Shown in pieces: positions 7,372-34,141 of a DNA stretch of 38,144 nt. Each line of letters begins with the position of its first letter. Position 1 is the stretch's first letter. Location: sequence record NZ_CP072379.1, one strand, 5' to 3'. The notes under the pieces are model-generated. The model did not search any database and was not told the origin of the DNA. It saw only the letters and a program-made list of their open reading frames with translations. Source of the DNA: a plasmid. The translations under genes were made by a program, and so were the position numbers.

Positions 7372-8412
7372 ATGAATAAAATTGTAAAATTTCATAATGA
7401 TTTGAACAGTATTAAATTTTCTTCTTTTAGAGCTGTTGAATACGATCTTTTTTTTGCTATTTTATATAAATTAAAAGATAAACAGGAAGAAGAGATTATA
7501 TTGACTTTTGAAGAATTAAAAAAACTTTCTGAATATAAAAAAACTCAAAATAAATATTTTATAGATTCACTAATAGAAATAAATCAAAATTTATTATCTA
7601 TCAAATTAAACTTCAAAAATTATACTGAAGGACTTTATATTGGAGCTACTTTTTTTACTTATTACGAAATAAATGAACAAGAAAAAACTTTATCAATTTC
7701 AGTAAATCGGAAATTGACTTATTTAATTAACGATTTAACAAAAAATTTTACTCAATTAGAATTAAAGAAAATGTCTCAAATGAGTAGTAAATATTCAAAA
7801 ATAATTTTTCGATTTTTGAAACAGTATGATAATACTAAAAATAATACTAATTTTTGGGAAATTGAAATAAATGAGTTTAAAGAGTTGTTAAATATTCCTT
7901 CTTCGTATTTAATGGCAAATATTGATACTAGAATTTTAAAACCTGCATTATCAGAGTTATCTCCTCTTTTTTATAATTTAAAACTTATTAAAAAGAAAAG
8001 GGGGCGAAAGATAGATCGTTTAAGATTTGAATGGAATACAGAAACTGTTGAAATGAAAAAAAAGAAGGAAAATGAACCAAAAAAATCAGAAGTTGAATCA
8101 AAAAGAAAATACAAAATCATAGAAAATACTCCTAAAGTAGAAGAAAAAGAGAAAACTTTAAGTGAACAAATTAAAGAAGAACTTGAGATGGAACAAGAAG
8201 CTTTAAATAGAAGTACCACTTTATTAGGAGCATATATTGCTGGATTAAAAGATGTAACAAATAACTCAATTATAATCGATTCTAAAAGACGTATAAACTT
8301 GAGAAAAGAGAAAATTGAAAAATTGGAACAATTTTCTAATTTGGCTGATGACGAAATTGATGAGAGTTTGGAAAAAGTGATACAGAAAGTATTGGAGATG
8401 GAGATTAAGTAG
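7372..8412 (+). CDS. rep: Plasmid replication initiator, Rep_3 (RepB/RepA iteron-binding) family
   Basis: A 346-aa ORF with an AAGGATG Shine-Dalgarno sequence. The N-terminus, FHNDLNSIKFSSFRAVEYDLFFAILYKLKD, matches my recollection of the Rep_3 N-terminal region. The C-terminus is Lys/Glu-rich. The gene is preceded by an iteron array. Confidence 0.8.
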   Translation: MNKIVKFHNDLNSIKFSSFRAVEYDLFFAILYKLKDKQEEEIILTFEELKKLSEYKKTQNKYFIDSLIEINQNLLSIKLNFKNYTEGLYIGATFFTYYEINEQEKTLSISVNRKLTYLINDLTKNFTQLELKKMSQMSSKYSKIIFRFLKQYDNTKNNTNFWEIEINEFKELLNIPSSYLMANIDTRILKPALSELSPLFYNLKLIKKKRGRKIDRLRFEWNTETVEMKKKKENEPKKSEVESKRKYKIIENTPKVEEKEKTLSEQIKEELEMEQEALNRSTTLLGAYIAGLKDVTNNSIIIDSKRRINLRKEKIEKLEQFSNLADDEIDESLEKVIQKVLEMEIK

Positions 8413-9183: not shown

Positions 9184-9915
9184 TTAATATATTTTAAATT
9201 TTTCGCTCATCCTTTTAAAATTTCTTTCTTGAATATCATTGTATTTTTCAAAAAAGTCTTTTGGTAATTCATCTTTAAATAATTTTAATAATTCTTTATA
9301 TAATCTTCGTTCTTCTATACTAAGAGAATAAGAGCTTTTTGAAATTATTTTCTTAGAAGTAAATATCGTTACTTCATCTAAAGAAGTAGGACTCATATAT
9401 GCTCCTCTTTCATTGCTCAGATCTATAGAAGTTAATAAATTTAGAATTATTGAAGAATATTTGTTTTTAGAATCCATTACACTTTTCACGTATTTTTTTT
9501 CTTGTTTTTCGCCATTTTCATCAAATGAAAACCAGTGTAATTCTACTTGTTTACTATTTTTTTTTATAATCCATTTCCCGTATCCGTAGTTCTCATCTGG
9601 GGATACATCGTATTTATGTTTCTTATTGAAAGAACTATAATAATTGTCAATATTTTCTAAAGTAAAACATTTTAAAACTTTTTCTTTTACTAGTGATTCC
9701 ATAGAATCTATTTTAGATTTTAGTGGAAACAATTTAAAATAAAAAACTAATTCATCTTCGTTCTCTTTATTCAAAATATATCCATAGCCTTCAGAAGGTT
9801 CTGGTGGTTCTCCTCTAAAAAAATCATAGTAACTCAAGCTATTCAAATACATAGATTGCCAAGAATAGCTCACATTTCCAAATACTAAAAATAAAATCAC
9901 TATTAGTTTTTTCAT
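9184..9915 (-). CDS. Secreted hypothetical protein (signal peptide, no lipobox Cys)
   Basis: A 243-aa ORF with an N-terminal MKKLIVILFLVFGNVSYS signal-like segment. The rest of the protein is Lys/Tyr/Asp-rich and I do not recognise a family. Confidence 0.5.
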   Translation of the reverse strand: MKKLIVILFLVFGNVSYSWQSMYLNSLSYYDFFRGEPPEPSEGYGYILNKENEDELVFYFKLFPLKSKIDSMESLVKEKVLKCFTLENIDNYYSSFNKKHKYDVSPDENYGYGKWIIKKNSKQVELHWFSFDENGEKQEKKYVKSVMDSKNKYSSIILNLLTSIDLSNERGAYMSPTSLDEVTIFTSKKIISKSSYSLSIEERRLYKELLKLFKDELPKDFFEKYNDIQERNFKRMSEKFKIY

Positions 9916-10182
9916 TATTTATCATCCTTTTTGATTTCCAAAATTTTTAATCCGTTAAATTCTATGGTTTCTCCTATTTTCATTTTTTCAAAACCTTTAT
10001 GTTTTTTATTAATTTTTTCTATAATATTTAACGGAGTTCCTTTATATCCTTTTTCTAATGCTGTTATAAAATTATCAGATTTAGAAACATAAAAAATCTA
10101 TTAATATTTCTTTCTTCTGCTTGTCTTACACCTTCAAAGCTTTTATACCAATTTTTATCAACATCTAATTGGAGTGTCCCCA

Positions 10183-10440
10183 AAAATTTAGACTATTTTT
10201 TTAAGCAATTTTTTCATTTTTTTTCTTTATGCTTTCTTCGTATTCATTTGGACTTGTAAATCCTATTTTACTGTGGATCCTGCTATTATTATACCATATT
10301 TCTATATACTCGTATATTCCAGTTCTTAAATTTTCTAAATTTTCACTATGTACATATTCTTTTTTCAATGTTGTATGGAATGATTCCATGTAGACATTAT
10401 CATAAGGATTCCCTTTTCTGCTATAAGATATGGAGTGTAC
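10183..10440 (-). mobile_element. Truncated IS remnant (IS3-like rve transposase C-terminus plus terminal repeat tggagtgtccccaaaaatttagacta)
   Basis: The ORF 10201..10389 encodes ...ESFHTTLKKEYVHSENLENLRTGIYEYIEIWYNNSRIHSKIGFTSPNEYEE, a typical OrfB C-terminus of the IS3 family. The terminal roughly 80 bp, including the 26-bp end sequence, recur at 30713-30790. There is no DDE core or orfA, so the element is truncated. A second IR-like sequence, tggagtgtacctaaaagtttgac, at 10432 in the same orientation marks the truncation point. Confidence 0.65.
10201..10389 (-). pseudogene. IS3-family transposase OrfB, C-terminal fragment only
   Basis: A 62-aa fragment covering the C-terminal end of the rve integrase core. 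Confidence 0.65.
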
Positions 10441-10607
10441 CTAAAAGTTTGACTTTTTGGTATAAAAAAGGGCTCAAATCGATTGTAAATGGTCTTAAAA
10501 TTGAAATGAGATTTTTTGATTGAATTTTAGGAAAAGAAGTGGTATACTATGGGTAAGAAAAAACCATTAGCGTGGAAAATATAAATTGCAGAAAACAGAC
10601 TCTCTTC

Positions 10608-10637
10608 TTGAAGCAGGGTCTTTTTTTATGTTATAAT
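10608..10637 (+). promoter_or_regulatory. Candidate sigma70 promoter: TTGAAG, 17-bp spacer, TGtTATAAT
   Basis: The -35 box TTGAAG is at 10608-10613. A 17-nt spacer precedes an extended -10 box TGTTATAAT ending at 10637. It lies about 45 nt upstream of the strong Shine-Dalgarno sequence GGGGGGTGA of the small ORF at 10691. The -35 box lies within the loop of an upstream hairpin (10597-10621). Confidence 0.4.
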
Positions 10638-10690
10638 ATTTCGTCAAGAATGCAAACTTGGCAAATTCACGCTAATGGGGGGTGAGATAA

Positions 10691-10756
10691 ATGTTTTATG
10701 ATTTGACGGTTCTAGTAGCAATAATCGTAGTATCTTTGATTATTAGCAAACGATAG
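10691..10756 (+). CDS. 21-aa hydrophobic peptide MFYDLTVLVAIIVVSLIISKR, a candidate type I toxin-like membrane peptide
   Basis: The ORF is too short for the ORF track. It has a strong Shine-Dalgarno sequence, ggggggtgagataaATG. The peptide has a single transmembrane helix and a basic C-terminus. A promoter lies upstream and an intrinsic terminator immediately downstream. Confidence 0.35.
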   Translation: MFYDLTVLVAIIVVSLIISKR

Positions 10757-10784
10757 TTGAATCATCATCGGCACCCGAATATGT

Positions 10785-10822
10785 CTGTCAGTTGAAATAT
10801 ACTGGCAGATTTTTATATCTTT
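10785..10822 (+). terminator. Rho-independent terminator (ctgtcag-N10-ctggcag then atttttatatctttt)
   Basis: A 7-bp stem with one G-U pair is followed by a T-rich tract, 29 nt after the stop of the small ORF. Confidence 0.45.
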
Positions 10823-10958
10823 TAGGTGTCCGCAACAATGCATAAATAAATGAATAGAAGACACTATAAGGGTACTTTGATTTTGACGAGTAACCTTAAA
10901 TTGTGTTATAATTAATTTATCAAAGTTATTATATCGTTTTTCTTTTCAAAGAATAATA

Positions 10959-11915
10959 TTAAATTTCATACTTCCTAAACCAATTTTCAAAATGCTGAAA
11001 ATTACTAAATTTAAAATTTTGTAAATGGTTATCATCTACATTTTTAACAGTTACAATTAATTCCTCATTAATTTCTTTAAAATTAATGATATTTAAATAA
11101 TTATATCTCTCAAATACTTTATCTTTCATTTTTATTTTTCGATTTATATAATTAATAGCTTTTTCAGGATTGTTTACTTTAAATTCTTTTTCTAGAATAT
11201 TTCCACAAATCTCCCTAAATTCTTTTTTTGTTTCCTTTTTACCAGATTTTTTAAATCTAAACTCATAACCTGAAACTTTACTTCTTCCTCGTCCTAAAGA
11301 ATTCTTATATTTTTTGATAACTTTTAAATTAAATTCTTCTCCGAGTTCGTTCATTATTGGTTTCAAAATTTTGCTATCAATCTTGTCTGTTTTATAACTT
11401 TGTGGAATATCTAATAAGTACTTAAATTCTTCAATACTAACAATCCAAATTCCTGTGTATCTAAACTGTTTCATTCTTCGATAAAATTCTTTTGTATAAG
11501 TAGACTTAAAATTCACAAATTCTTCTAATTCAAATCTTGTAAAATTTGATGTTAATTCATTTAAGACATACTTAAATTCTTCATTTATTCCAATTGTAAC
11601 AATTTGTTTTTCAACATTAATTGTATATTTTGTAAATAAAACGAACCGAGTCCATTCAACATCATCACCTATACGAATATTGCATTTTAAAAGCTTGTTG
11701 TAAGCACTGTCTAGCGTATTTACAAAATTCTTCATATCATTGTAAGGATATTTAATTAATTTTTTCAAATACTTAAAATCAAATTCTACATACTTTAAAC
11801 CTTGGTCTCTAATTCTGCTACAAATTGATATTAATAAATTAATTTCTGTGGAATTGAATTTTCTTAATGCTACTGTATTCATATCATTATTAAATTTTAC
11901 AACTTCATTAGCCAT
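10959..11915 (-). CDS. rep: Second plasmid replication initiator, Rep_3 family
   Basis: An ATG at 11915 follows GGAGGTTTGT. The N-terminus is MANEVVKFNNDMNTVALRKFNSTEINLLISICSRIRDQGLKYVEFDF. Overall it resembles rep1 and the Rep_3 architecture. An iteron array lies immediately upstream at 12025-12152. Confidence 0.8.
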   Translation of the reverse strand: MANEVVKFNNDMNTVALRKFNSTEINLLISICSRIRDQGLKYVEFDFKYLKKLIKYPYNDMKNFVNTLDSAYNKLLKCNIRIGDDVEWTRFVLFTKYTINVEKQIVTIGINEEFKYVLNELTSNFTRFELEEFVNFKSTYTKEFYRRMKQFRYTGIWIVSIEEFKYLLDIPQSYKTDKIDSKILKPIMNELGEEFNLKVIKKYKNSLGRGRSKVSGYEFRFKKSGKKETKKEFREICGNILEKEFKVNNPEKAINYINRKIKMKDKVFERYNYLNIINFKEINEELIVTVKNVDDNHLQNFKFSNFQHFENWFRKYEI

Positions 11916-12024
11916 ACAAACCTCCAAATTTTATTTTTAAATCCTAAATTAGTAAATTCGTTTTAATTATACACCCAAAAAAATAATTTTTCAACCCTTA
12001 GGGTTAAAAATGGTGATTTTCATG

Positions 12025-12152
12025 TTATTTTTGGGTGGTTTAATTAATTAAGCTTTGTTGTTTTTGGGTGGTTTATTTGTTATTTTTGGGTGGTTTAATC
12101 AATAAAATTTTGTTATTTTTGGGTGGTTTATTGTTATTTTTGGGTGGTTTAA
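12025..12152. repeat. Iteron array for rep2: five copies of ttatttttgggtggttta with alternating spacing of about 22 and 34 bp
   Basis: Direct repeats are seen upstream of rep2. A small perfect inverted repeat, aaccct-t-agggtt, lies at 11993-12005. Confidence 0.8.
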
Positions 12153-12783
12153 TAATACTCTAGACAAGTAAAAATGCGGTTTGTAGAGTACCTAAAAGTA
12201 TAAAAAAAGAGTATATATATAAAAGGTATAATAAAATAGGTTCTATTTTTTAAATAAAAAAAACTCAAAAGTATTTTCAACCCCAAAATAACCAAAATTT
12301 GAAATAAATAAAATAACCCTATTTCAATCAAAAATATAATTCCCTGACTCCCAAAATGTAGTTTTTAATATTTTTGTAACAAAAAAGTATCTTTACTGCT
12401 TATTACTTTTTACAATTCACTATTTTCCATTTTCAAAAAAATTTTACTTCTCCTTTTTATTGATTTTACTTAATGAAAATGCTATAATAAATATACCATA
12501 GTGGAAAAAGATCCATAGATGTATACAAAATAAAAACATAAAAATAAGGAGAGTAACAACTCTCCTTTTGTTATTTCCAAGTTTCTCCAATTATAATAAT
12601 TATTGTTTGTAAAATTACTATAACCAAGATTTTTATCCATAACTTTTCCATAGATGTATAATCTCCTTTCTTTCAAGGATTATTAAAATTATATCATTCT
12701 TTTCTCTATTTTAAAAAATAAAGCTATTGTATTGATAATATATTGAAATATTGATACAATAAACAAAAAAGGAGATGATTACT

Positions 12784-27924: not shown

Positions 27925-28266
27925 ACTCAAGGACGTGGAAGAAGTCGTGTTTCAGGATTTGAATTTAGATTTAAAAAATCTGGTAAAAAGGAAACAAAAA
28001 AAGAATTTAGGGAGATTTGTGGAAATATTCTAGAAAAAGAATTTAAAGTAAATAATCCTGAAAAAGCTATTAATTATATAAATCGAAAAATAAAAATGAA
28101 AGATAAAGTATTTGAGAGATATAATTATTTGAATATCATTAATTTTAAAGAAATTAATGAGGAATTAATTGTAACTGTTAAAAATGTAGATGATAACCAT
28201 TTACAAAATTTTAAATTTAGTAATTTTCAGCATTTTGAAAATTGGTTTAGGAAGTATGAAATTTAA
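27925..28266 (+). pseudogene. Truncated third rep copy, covering only the C-terminal 112 aa of a rep2-like initiator
   Basis: The translation GRGRSRVSGFEFRFKKSGKKETKKEFREICGNILEKEFKVNNPEKAINYINRKIKMKDKVFERYNYLNIINFKEINEELIVTVKNVDDNHLQNFKFSNFQHFENWFRKYEI is nearly identical to the rep2 C-terminus (10959-11300). The 3' flank homology continues for about 50 bp. Confidence 0.8.
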
Positions 28267-28386
28267 TATTATTTTTTGAAAATAGAAACTATATAATAAC
28301 TTTAAGAAAAAAAACATTCAATATAATTTGATAAATAAAAATTACAGAAATAAGACTCTTTTCTTTAAGTAGAGGGTGTGTAAAAA

Positions 28387-28433
28387 CAGGATAATAAAAC
28401 TACCATCCTGTACCATATATCTGGACACTCTCC
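28387..28433 (+). repeat. Hairpin caggataataaaactaccatcctg plus a right half-unit ctggacactctcc (left half deleted)
   Basis: Matches 8444-8513 but lacks tatattttgagtttacacaaaatt. Confidence 0.6.
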
Positions 28434-28544
28434 ATAAATCTCCAAATACTATATAGTATTTAGAGGGTTACGCAAAAATTTTTACACACTCTAGTTACTT
28501 TTTAAATCAGTTTTACTGTATCTGAAAATTAAGAACTTTAGTTA

Positions 28545-30091: not shown

Positions 30092-30142
30092 ATTATCACT
30101 CCTAACTTTCAAAATATTTTTATTGTTTTTTCCTATTTAAAA

Positions 30143-30178
30143 ATTGCAGAAATAAGACTCTTTTCTTTAAGTAGAGTC
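30143..30178 (+). terminator. Hairpin and T-run (agactc-N13-gagtct ttttttt). Diverged copies of the same motif lie at 28343-28365 and 10597-10628.
   Basis: A 6-bp stem is followed by seven T residues. The flanking sequence attgcagaaataagactcttttctttaagtagag is shared by the three loci. Confidence 0.4.
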
Positions 30179-30237
30179 TTTTTTTCTAACTAATTAAAGT
30201 AAAATATGTTGTAATTTTCATACTTTTACTTAAACCT

Positions 30238-30699: not shown

Positions 30700-30712
30700 A
30701 TTACCAAAATAT

Positions 30713-31055
30713 GGAGTGTCCCCAAAAATTTAGACTATTTTTAAGCAATTTTTTTGTTTCCTTTCTTTATGGCTTTCTTCGTATTCATTTGGACTTTTAA
30801 AATTTAATACTTTTCTTGATATATTATTGTATCTGCTGCAGTATCTTTTTACTGACCTTCTTAATTCTTCCAGACTTCTAAATCTTTTTCCTAAATAATA
30901 ATTACTGTCTAGCCTGTGGCTTCTTTCCACTTTCCCATTCTGCCACGGCGAATACGGTCTTGTTGTCATGTATTCTATCCAGCTTTAACTCAAATAGTGT
31001 CTTTTTGCCATTTTCCGCATTCGTAAACTCCCTGCCGTTATCACTTTGTATTTTT
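30713..31055 (-). mobile_element. IS remnant (rve-type DDE transposase, frameshifted and 5'-truncated) with the same 26-bp terminus as the remnant at 10183
   Basis: The ORF 30730..30969 encodes TRPYSPWQNGKVERSHRL...SPNEYEE. An upstream shifted frame reads SDNGREFTNAENGKKTLFELKLDRI, the third acidic-residue region of an rve integrase. The first roughly 80 bp match 10183-10265. Confidence 0.6.
30730..30969 (-). pseudogene. rve-type transposase C-terminal fragment (IS481/IS3-like)
   Basis: Contains the PYSPWQNGKVER motif. A frameshift relative to the upstream DNGREF segment breaks the gene. Confidence 0.55.
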
Positions 31056-33828: not shown

Positions 33829-34096
33829 TTTAGTTCCTTTCTATAAGGAATTTTTTTTTTTATCTCATACCTTATTAATAATAATTATATAATATAAATT
33901 ATCAAAAAACAATATCAATTTTAGAACTTAAAACAAAAAGGTATGAAAATAATTCATTTCCACACCTTATTTTAAGCCTCAATTTATAAGCAACTTTCAC
34001 TTTTTCTGTTCAGATTATTAAATATATAACTATATTTTAACAGAAAAATTTTTTTTTAGCCATAACAAAAACCTCCAAATATTATATAGTTGTTTT

Positions 34097-34141
34097 ACCA
34101 TATATTATATTTTGAATTTACACAAAATTATGGACACTCTC
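34097..34141 (+). repeat. Junction element taccatatattatatttt followed by a 28-bp unit gaatttacacaaaattatggacactctc
   Basis: Matches 8468-8513. It lies about 290 bp upstream of the recombinase gene start, and both are on the same side of the module. Confidence 0.65.

Follow-up and report, generated by a model that had tools for sequence, protein, structure and literature searches.

A plasmid cassette encoding a 21-residue hydrophobic peptide as a candidate type I toxin–antitoxin-like module

Anatomy of the cassette

The window analyzed here is a 38,144-nucleotide (nt) stretch of a plasmid (sequence record NZ_CP072379.1), and all positions refer to it unless stated otherwise. On its + strand, a preliminary description had outlined a self-contained mini-gene for a 21-amino-acid (aa) hydrophobic peptide, a candidate type I toxin, with its own promoter, strong Shine–Dalgarno (SD) sequence, and terminator. 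This anatomy is real. The promoter of the peptide mRNA, here called P1 (10608–10637), is formed by TTGAAG at 10608–10613 and the extended −10 element TGtTATAAT ending at 10637. Both hexamers were found as described; the spacer between them is 18 nt and not 17 nt. The 5′ untranslated region (UTR) presumably starts at 10644 and extends to 10690. It holds the predicted target of a small RNA (sRNA; 10651–10678) and the SD sequence GGGGGGTGA (10677–10685), whose predicted duplex with the 16S rRNA tail (−14.3 kcal/mol) is the strongest found in a scan of the window. The open reading frame (ORF; + strand, 10691–10756, stop included) starts with the ATG at 10691 and encodes MFYDLTVLVAIIVVSLIISKR. The grand average of hydropathy of this peptide is 1.77, its net charge is +1, and it ends in a C-terminal KR. 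In size, hydrophobicity, and possession of its own translation signals, it agrees with the criterion used for type I toxins (PMC8309996). The ORF is followed by a 10-bp stem (10783–10810) and a T-run, which together form the intrinsic terminator of the peptide mRNA (10783–10815; −13.8 kcal/mol on the + strand and −7.6 kcal/mol on the − strand). The stem is the sole terminator-like match in 9500–12000, where 0.4 are expected.

Both strands of the window were scanned for ORFs of 14–60 aa that contain a hydrophobic 14-residue stretch and have an SD/anti-SD duplex of −7 kcal/mol or better. Three ORFs pass, and two of the three, the 21-aa ORF among them, have a terminator. The same filter applied to around 100 kb of Leptotrichia plasmid records (our entries L001 and L044–L046) returned only a family of 26-aa peptides, which is described below. 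Across the related contigs scanned, only the 21-aa and 26-aa families were returned. The promoter-like hexamers also exceed what is expected by chance in AT-rich DNA: there are 26 extended −10 sites in the window versus 12.5±4 in simulated sequence. The good sites stand before genes, and three of them cluster on the + strand, at 10520, 10608, and 10883.

The site at 10520 belongs to a second promoter, P0 (+ strand, 10520–10548), with TTGAAT, a 17-nt spacer, and the extended −10 element TGgTATACT. The hairpin noted earlier at 10597–10621 exists and does overlap the −35 box of P1. It had been proposed to sequester that promoter, and it is better read as the intrinsic terminator of P0 (10597–10627, + strand), consisting of a bulged hairpin and T7. 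The P1 −35 box TTGAAG falls within the loop and 3′ arm of this hairpin. The predicted fold is −11.2 kcal/mol on the + strand and is weak on the − strand (−5.7 kcal/mol), because the G·U pairs turn into mismatches there. This asymmetry therefore favors a function on the + strand. P0 and this terminator would delimit an RNA of approximately 73 nt (10555–10627, + strand), its start being placed by the −10 box and its 3′ end by the terminator. We regard this as a candidate antitoxin sRNA; as a separate transcript, it is defined by promoter and terminator prediction alone. The 73-nt transcript has no Rfam match and no meaningful ORF. A coding role was rejected, the only frame having 11 codons and beginning before the predicted transcription start.

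The hairpin and its 5′ flank have two paralogs in the window, at 30138–30185 (85% identity) and 28333–28372 (82%). The former is flanked on both sides by − strand genes and folds as stably on one strand as on the other. The latter lies around 70 nt after a rep 3′ remnant (28150–28265) and is truncated by sequence resembling the end of an insertion sequence (IS). Both read TTTAAG where the P1 −35 box reads TTGAAG. Since these homologous copies adjoin other genes, the P0 hairpin appears from its sequence to be a recycled terminator element that is reused around the plasmid.

Distribution and variation

The unit was initially delimited as 10597–10822. Alignments of related contigs show that the conserved cassette begins at about 10503, takes in P0, and is kept intact to 10814 (+ strand) across differing flanks. 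This cassette of around 310 nt is near-invariant on more than 30 metagenome or metagenome-assembled genome (MAG) contigs, in which the ORF, P0, and the sRNA region are kept together. All of those with an assignable taxon are Leptotrichia-type plasmid contexts. P0 is invariant in the cassette copies save for one spacer change (L009), and it is always co-inherited with the ORF except in one rearranged contig (L012).

The ends of the cassette are kept through at least four left junctions and at least three right junctions. On the left, L003, L011, and L022 switch to different sequence at 10503 and L041 at 10482; an IS-end-like flank is common to the window, L009, L028, L029, L036, and L040. On the right, sequence continues directly after the T-run (10814) in the window, L003, and L022. 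There are 41 extra nt after 10814 in L011 and around 190 extra nt in L009, L012, L028, L029, L036, L040, L041, and L060. Short ATTTTT repeats at the right junctions suggest repeated deletions. In L003 (12436–12897 of that contig), the two flanks of the cassette (window 10428–10520 and 10809–10848) recur at a second site, beside the iterons of the other Rep_3 gene, but enclose around 330 nt of unrelated sequence. Judged from this arrangement, the cassette appears to behave as an exchangeable insert at its position.

The segment of around 190 nt corresponds to L028 7552–7740. It is absent from the window, where it would fall between 10814 and 10815, and L011 keeps just its first 41 nt. It holds ATAAAACATTTA, a 12-nt perfect complement, on the same strand, of the mini-gene start-codon region, and also a 13-bp perfect palindrome, TATTATAAAAGAC...GTCTTTTATAATA.

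A search of other plasmids for the peptide had been suggested. No match was found among PLSDB plasmids, either by blastn with 10400–10960 or by tblastn with the 21-aa peptide; the copies are those on the metagenome and MAG contigs. The GTDB and JGI collections were each covered by one exact-pattern scan. The back-translated peptide pattern occurs in one of 185,579 GTDB species genomes, an uncultured Leptotrichia MAG. A relaxed peptide pattern gave 25 loci in JGI metagenomes, of which six are true copies, all with an identical peptide. Phage records contain no cassette match, and the peptide patterns in IMG/VR gave zero matches or unrelated hydrophobic ORFs without an SD sequence. The peptide is absent from a collection of around 15 billion proteins. 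The exact neighboring Rep protein (ATG start) is present on at least 22 ENA metagenome contigs and the product of the nearby IS remnant on 24 further contigs; the contigs reached in this way added no new cassette variation.

Six haplotypes share the left flank. Among these, substitutions affect 5 of 312 nt columns in the cassette versus 26 of 336 in the IS remnant, an approximately fivefold lower level. The Fisher p value of around 2e-4 for these substitution-only counts is an estimate, the computed test having used gap-inclusive counts (73 versus 5). The variable sites over all cassette copies, given approximately as they differ by 1–3 nt between alignments, lie at 10512, 10531, and 10643; at 10631, where the extended −10 box of P1 has TA instead of TG in L011; at 10684, a T to G change within the SD sequence in L040; and at 10734, which gives S15F in L012. 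This is the sole substitution in the ORF, and the peptide is otherwise identical in all copies. The 58-nt 3′ UTR has five variable sites. The candidate sRNA (10555–10627) has zero substitutions in any copy. Two changes in the terminator stem keep the pairing (G·U to G-C in L009 and G-C to G·U in L011).

The rearranged contig L012 is from the uncultured Leptotrichia MAG found in GTDB (CAURGH010000026.1, 2498–2700). It matches the cassette only from within the G-run of the SD sequence onward, from window position 10681. Upstream of the ORF, it has a GAGGGTGTGTAAAAA... element that is also found twice in the window (28373–28492 and 34074–34141) and is probably the end of an IS or of a miniature inverted-repeat transposable element. 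In L028, L029, L036, L040, L041, and L012, the cassette is followed, in the same orientation, by iteron-like repeats, a promoter, and a Rep_3 gene with around 70% DNA identity to the rep gene of the window. The cassette may thus be a replicon-associated accessory, which is the usual site of stability modules.

RNA pairing and interpretation

No antisense RNA gene had been evident in the preliminary description. A candidate partner RNA does lie directly upstream, and it is imperfectly complementary, over 21 bp, to the mRNA leader. The core is a perfect 11-nt inverted repeat (10564–10574 versus 10668–10678), which RNAduplex extends to 13 + 3 + 5 bp. The anti-leader segment of the sRNA (10564–10590, + strand) would pair through 10564–10576 with 10666–10678 (13 bp), through 10586–10590 with 10651–10655 (5 bp), and through three further base pairs. 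The predicted duplex is −25.3 kcal/mol versus −13.4±2.4 kcal/mol for dinucleotide shuffles of the 5′ part of the sRNA, and 0 of 1000 shuffles are as good. The 13-mer has no second copy in the window at two or fewer mismatches. The target reaches as far as the first two G residues of the SD sequence. We estimate the chance probability of this complementarity at around 0.5–1% and not lower. Two other accounts of the sRNA sequence were rejected. A countertranscript for Rep copy control was discarded, as the complement of the sRNA occurs in the mini-gene leader only. The 17-mer CCATTAGCGTGGAAAAT of the sRNA occurs in 10 viral contigs (eight with the same 20-mer) in unrelated contexts that are GC-richer or otherwise different; these matches are ascribed to chance.

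The mRNA itself is predicted to be folded. In a partition-function calculation over 10644–10816, the SD core (10680–10684) has an unpaired probability of 0.09 or less at four of its five positions and of 0.43 at 10681. The core is predicted to pair with an anti-SD CACCC in the 3′ UTR (10772–10776, + strand; probability around 0.47) or with UCAC at 10667–10670 (around 0.42). Codons 3–6 pair with the region around the stop codon. These values suggest that the SD core is almost always sequestered within the mRNA. The fold of the whole peptide transcript has a z-score of −1.9.

The peptide had been likened to the Fst, Ibs, and TisB toxins. The likeness holds for its size, hydrophobic helix, and basic tail; membership of these families by sequence was not found. 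Pfam gave no family at E≤10 (Fst/Ldr, Ibs, TisB, and Hok included), NCBIfam gave just CcoM at E=0.22, far below the cutoff, and PADLOC gave nothing for the peptide. Toxin sequences are too poorly conserved for effective homology searches (PMC8309996). Rfam 15 has no relevant match at E≤10 in 9800–12400 and no gathering-level match in the whole window; a match to the CRISPR repeat RF01348 (E=5.5) was discarded as noise.

The closest resemblance in layout is to tisB/IstR-1, shoB/OhsC, zorO/OrzO, and dinQ/AgrB of Enterobacteria. These, like the cassette as read here, combine a small hydrophobic toxin with an upstream sRNA gene that does not overlap the ORF. Around 13–21 bp of complementarity lie in the toxin 5′ UTR, and the mRNA is folded and poorly translated. 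In that group the sRNA gene is divergent, whereas here it is co-directional; in the cassette, moreover, an inverted repeat supplies the complementarity, and the terminator of the sRNA overlaps the promoter of the presumed toxin gene. The cassette also has no sequence similarity to the group, a host in another phylum (Fusobacteriota), and a plasmid location. The par locus of Enterococcus pAD1 (fst RNA I/RNA II) is, like the cassette as read here, a plasmid stability-type module beside the replicon with a small hydrophobic peptide. Its antitoxin pairs with the translation initiation region through repeats, as would be the case here, and not by simple overlap. In par, however, convergent transcripts share one bidirectional terminator, and direct repeats are present. 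Both features are missing from the 21-aa cassette: neither a directly repeated translation initiation region nor a convergent promoter was found, and its terminator is strand-asymmetric. The par layout is that of the 26-aa module.

The Ibs peptides are, like ours, very short and almost wholly hydrophobic, and IbsC (19 aa) is still toxic when cut to 15 aa (PMC8309996, which also covers the ShoB/OhsC system). Sib is a fully overlapping antisense RNA, whereas the cassette has, on the − strand, a weak promoter-like site and a poor terminator. For aapA1 of Helicobacter pylori, it was shown experimentally that folding of the full-length mRNA impedes translation and sequesters the SD sequence (PMC5416894). 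A folded toxin mRNA with a sequestered SD sequence, and a small RNA as a further block, are predicted for the cassette as well. IsoA1 is a cis-antisense RNA from the opposite strand and activation of aapA1 needs 3′ processing (PMC5416894), whereas the cassette sRNA is co-directional. Type III loci (ToxIN, CptIN, and TenpIN) have been reported in Fusobacterium and Leptotrichia (PMC3401426) and share with the cassette the co-directional order of promoter, antitoxin RNA, terminator, and toxin gene. Their antitoxins are tandem-repeat RNAs that bind an endoribonuclease toxin of around 170 aa, whereas the ORF here has 21 aa and its own promoter. A type III system was rejected, with no tandem repeats in 10300–10960 and no protein RNase. 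The layout of the cassette thus differs from the known geometries, namely overlapping antisense, convergent with a shared terminator, and divergent upstream.

Our preferred reading, held tentatively and at somewhat below even confidence, is that the cassette of around 310 nt is a type I toxin–antitoxin-like module with a co-directional upstream antitoxin RNA. In its favor, besides the conservation and the pairing given above, a full set of expression signals is present at proper spacings, and the traits of the peptide fit membrane-associated type I toxins: fewer than 60 aa, a hydrophobic helix, and a positive C-terminus. The type I toxin candidate of the preliminary description still offers the best explanation, revised to a larger cassette, with the hairpin as a terminator, a candidate partner RNA, and no family membership. 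P1 would give an mRNA of around 170 nt and from it a single-helix hydrophobic peptide of 21 residues with a basic C-terminus, a presumed membrane toxin. This mRNA seems built for poor translation, its very strong SD sequence being paired with the upstream UCAC or with CACCC of the 3′ UTR. P0, directly upstream and in the same direction, would give the RNA of around 73 nt that ends at the hairpin and U7 overlapping the P1 −35 box. Its unstructured 5′ part may pair with the leader (10651–10678) up to the 5′ edge of the SD sequence, and such pairing could block ribosome access, mark the mRNA for cleavage, or both. The small RNA would then be the antitoxin. The computation itself shows the anatomy, the ends of the cassette, its low polymorphism, the complementarity, and the predicted folds. 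Loss of the plasmid would let the unstable RNA decay, whereupon the peptide would be produced; we infer an addiction function of this kind, as we do the transcription starts, translation and toxicity of the peptide, and its repression by the RNA.

Several observations weigh against a type I-like module. The hydrophobic stretch of the peptide is short, around 14–16 residues. The pairing stops at the 5′ edge of the SD sequence, so that a translational block is not guaranteed. When all 36-nt windows of the plasmid are compared against the leader, the sRNA locus ranks around 10th of around 1900; the loci that outrank it are C-rich and all on the + strand, mostly where long ORFs run on the − strand. 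The complementary arms could also have been left by an inverted duplication, the region being mosaic and rich in IS elements. The copies are near-identical and therefore give no covariation for the RNA–RNA pairing and no synonymous/non-synonymous signal; the one ORF substitution (L012) is non-synonymous, and the low polymorphism could stem from recent spread instead of selection. L012 keeps the ORF (with S15F) and the terminator without P1, the leader, and the small RNA, a state that fits a silenced remnant but also a harmless ORF. The cassette is very narrowly distributed, occurring in a single GTDB species and in none of the PLSDB plasmids or phage records. To our knowledge, there is no characterized precedent for a co-directional upstream antitoxin gene among type I systems.

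Three other explanations were weighed. The peptide could be a type I-like toxin under a different controller, either a fully complementary antisense RNA from the − strand or control in cis; we consider this quite unlikely. The antisense RNA would start from CTGACA-16-GATGAT (10791–10764) and end at the hairpin (10621–10597). This promoter-like site is present, the hairpin has an A-run upstream, and its paralog (30146–30188) folds equally on both strands. However, this is the one − strand site found for an Ibs/Sib-type antisense gene, its −10 box GATGAT is poor (9/12 matches, no TG), and such sites occur at chance frequency. The cassette hairpin is moreover a poor terminator on the − strand (−5.7 kcal/mol, no clean T-run). 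For control in cis, the mRNA's own folds would act, or P0 read-through transcripts would pair 10564–10590 with 10651–10678. Both predicted partners of the SD sequence do lie within the mRNA itself, and L012 keeps the ORF without the upstream RNA. Against either form of this explanation, P0 has an extended −10 element and is co-inherited with the ORF save in the rearranged L012. The expression signals and the conservation would fit equally a real but non-toxic small membrane protein (for example, a membrane protein modulator or a plasmid–host interface factor), the RNA being an ordinary regulator or unrelated. Many small hydrophobic bacterial proteins are not toxins, and there is the weak, non-significant NCBIfam likeness to small membrane subunits (CcoM). 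On the other hand, the ORF is a stand-alone monocistronic unit with no partner gene, adjoining replication functions on a plasmid rich in addiction modules. A strong yet sequestered SD sequence with a dedicated complementary RNA resembles the design of toxin control, and the very narrow distribution also argues against this explanation, to which we assign a small probability.

It is also conceivable, though improbable, that there is no functional peptide gene at all. The locus would then act at the RNA level or be a fortuitous mosaic of a recycled terminator, AT-rich promoter-like DNA, and an incidental ORF left amid pieces of IS elements and replicons. The region does contain debris (an IS3-family remnant, solo inverted repeats, and a vestigial rep promoter), and the P0 terminator recurs at the two sites given above. 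The near-identical copies supply no comparative coding evidence. The peptide was never called as a gene among the 15 billion proteins, and it occurs in a single species-level genome. Set against this, two extended −10 promoters, the best SD sequence at correct spacing, a hydrophobic ORF, an anti-SD, and two terminators are jointly improbable. Several independent rearrangements respected the ends of the cassette, and its polymorphism is around fivefold below that of the flank. A leader peptide or attenuator of a downstream gene was rejected, as the + strand of the window is empty downstream and rep has its own promoter in the relatives.

Type I toxin–antitoxin systems have been characterized mainly in Firmicutes, Enterobacteria, and Helicobacter/Campylobacter. 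No such system of Fusobacteriota is described in the titles or abstracts of the literature searched. A stronger claim, which is possible but which we think doubtful, is that the cassette represents an undescribed type I family, the first in Fusobacteriota, with a new layout in which the terminator hairpin of the sRNA carries the toxin −35 box. Transcription and termination of the antitoxin would then be physically coupled to use of the toxin promoter, in addition to the pairing in trans at the leader and SD edge. If this tandem layout is real, an sRNA terminator embedded in a toxin promoter would be a new regulatory geometry.

A second peptide module and the plasmid context

A second module lies at 12440–12725. 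On its − strand, a promoter (TTTAAA at 12715, a 16-nt spacer, and TGaTATAAT at 12688) and the SD sequence AAAGGAGA precede a hydrophobic 26-aa ORF, MEKLWIKILVIVILQTIIIIIGETWK (12651–12571). A bidirectional terminator (12567–12546) is shared with a convergent + strand promoter that faces the ORF (TTGATT at 12460, a 17-nt spacer, and TGcTATAAT at 12488). Four complete Leptotrichia plasmids carry homologs of this module that lack annotation; the peptide reads MDKLWIKILIIIALQIAIILIEEFWK in L. wadei and L. trevisanii. A second copy of the translation initiation region follows the terminator. Both copies read TATACATCTATGGA in the window (12660–12647 and 12525–12512) and TATACACTTATGG in L045 and L046, so that the copies change together. 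Between the window and the L. wadei/L. trevisanii plasmids, this covariation reads TATACATCTATGG versus TATACACTTATGG. Through this repeat, the convergent RNA would be complementary over 14 nt to the start-codon region, with a modeled duplex of −22.1 kcal/mol; the sRNA–leader duplex of the 21-aa cassette is comparable to that of this better-supported module. Neither the 26-aa peptide nor its module has a Pfam, NCBIfam, or Rfam match. On sequence grounds, we describe it as a par/Fst-like layout with covarying repeats. Its presence points to a use of RNA-controlled small hydrophobic peptides on these plasmids and so gives a higher prior for the 21-aa cassette as an RNA-controlled peptide gene.

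The 21-aa cassette is thus put forward as an unannotated module of the type I toxin–antitoxin kind, possibly with a new gene geometry, in which the functional steps would be as outlined above. Should both modules be as read here, Leptotrichia plasmids would carry at least two unrelated, unannotated RNA-controlled peptide toxins. If validated, the pair would widen the known range of such systems to plasmids of Leptotrichia (Fusobacteriota) and could provide plasmid-stability tools for organisms with limited genetic tools. The 21-aa peptide and the 26-aa module are functional-looking genes on these plasmids that annotation pipelines missed.

The plasmid context noted earlier is real: there are two Rep_3 genes, iterons, and several type II toxin–antitoxin pairs, and the best matches are Leptotrichia plasmids. 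The window is AT-rich (around 19–36% GC). Besides the type II toxin–antitoxin genes, PLSDB yielded DNA matches to plasmids of five species only, namely L. shahii, L. wadei, L. trevisanii, L. hofstadii, and L. hongkongensis. Genes of the type II pairs, which are widely shared, match at 60–90% identity, mostly on Enterococcus plasmids; the pairs include YoeB/RelB and YafQ/RelB. From its best DNA and protein matches, we take the window to be a Leptotrichia-type plasmid. A two-partner secretion locus is also present. The Rep protein gene adjoining the cassette (10959–11927, − strand) encodes Rep3_N and Rep3_C domains and has 49% identity or less to the Rep proteins of the matching Leptotrichia plasmids. 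The second Rep_3 gene lies at 7372–8412 and the 22-nt iterons at 12023–12157.

The third + strand promoter of the cluster, at 10883–10912, is a near-consensus extended −10 promoter (TTGACG, 18 nt, TGtTATAAT) that reads into the convergent rep gene from its 3′ end. In related contigs, the equivalent promoter stands behind iteron-like TATAAGGG repeats and in front of a co-directional Rep_3 gene, which it drives. The promoter in the window is most simply read as a vestigial rep promoter left by inversion or replacement, because an inverted rep gene has taken the place of the original there. This promoter could still give rise to an RNA antisense to the 3′ end of rep.

On the other side of the cassette lies the C-terminal remnant of an IS3-family transposase (rve_2; 10201–10389, − strand). 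IS150-like terminal repeats, TGGAGTGTnCCnAAAAnTTTnGAC, occur three times in one orientation, at approximately 10170–10200, 10430–10458, and 30706–30740. With IS debris at 10166–10460 and 30706–30801, the surroundings of the mini-gene are therefore a mosaic.

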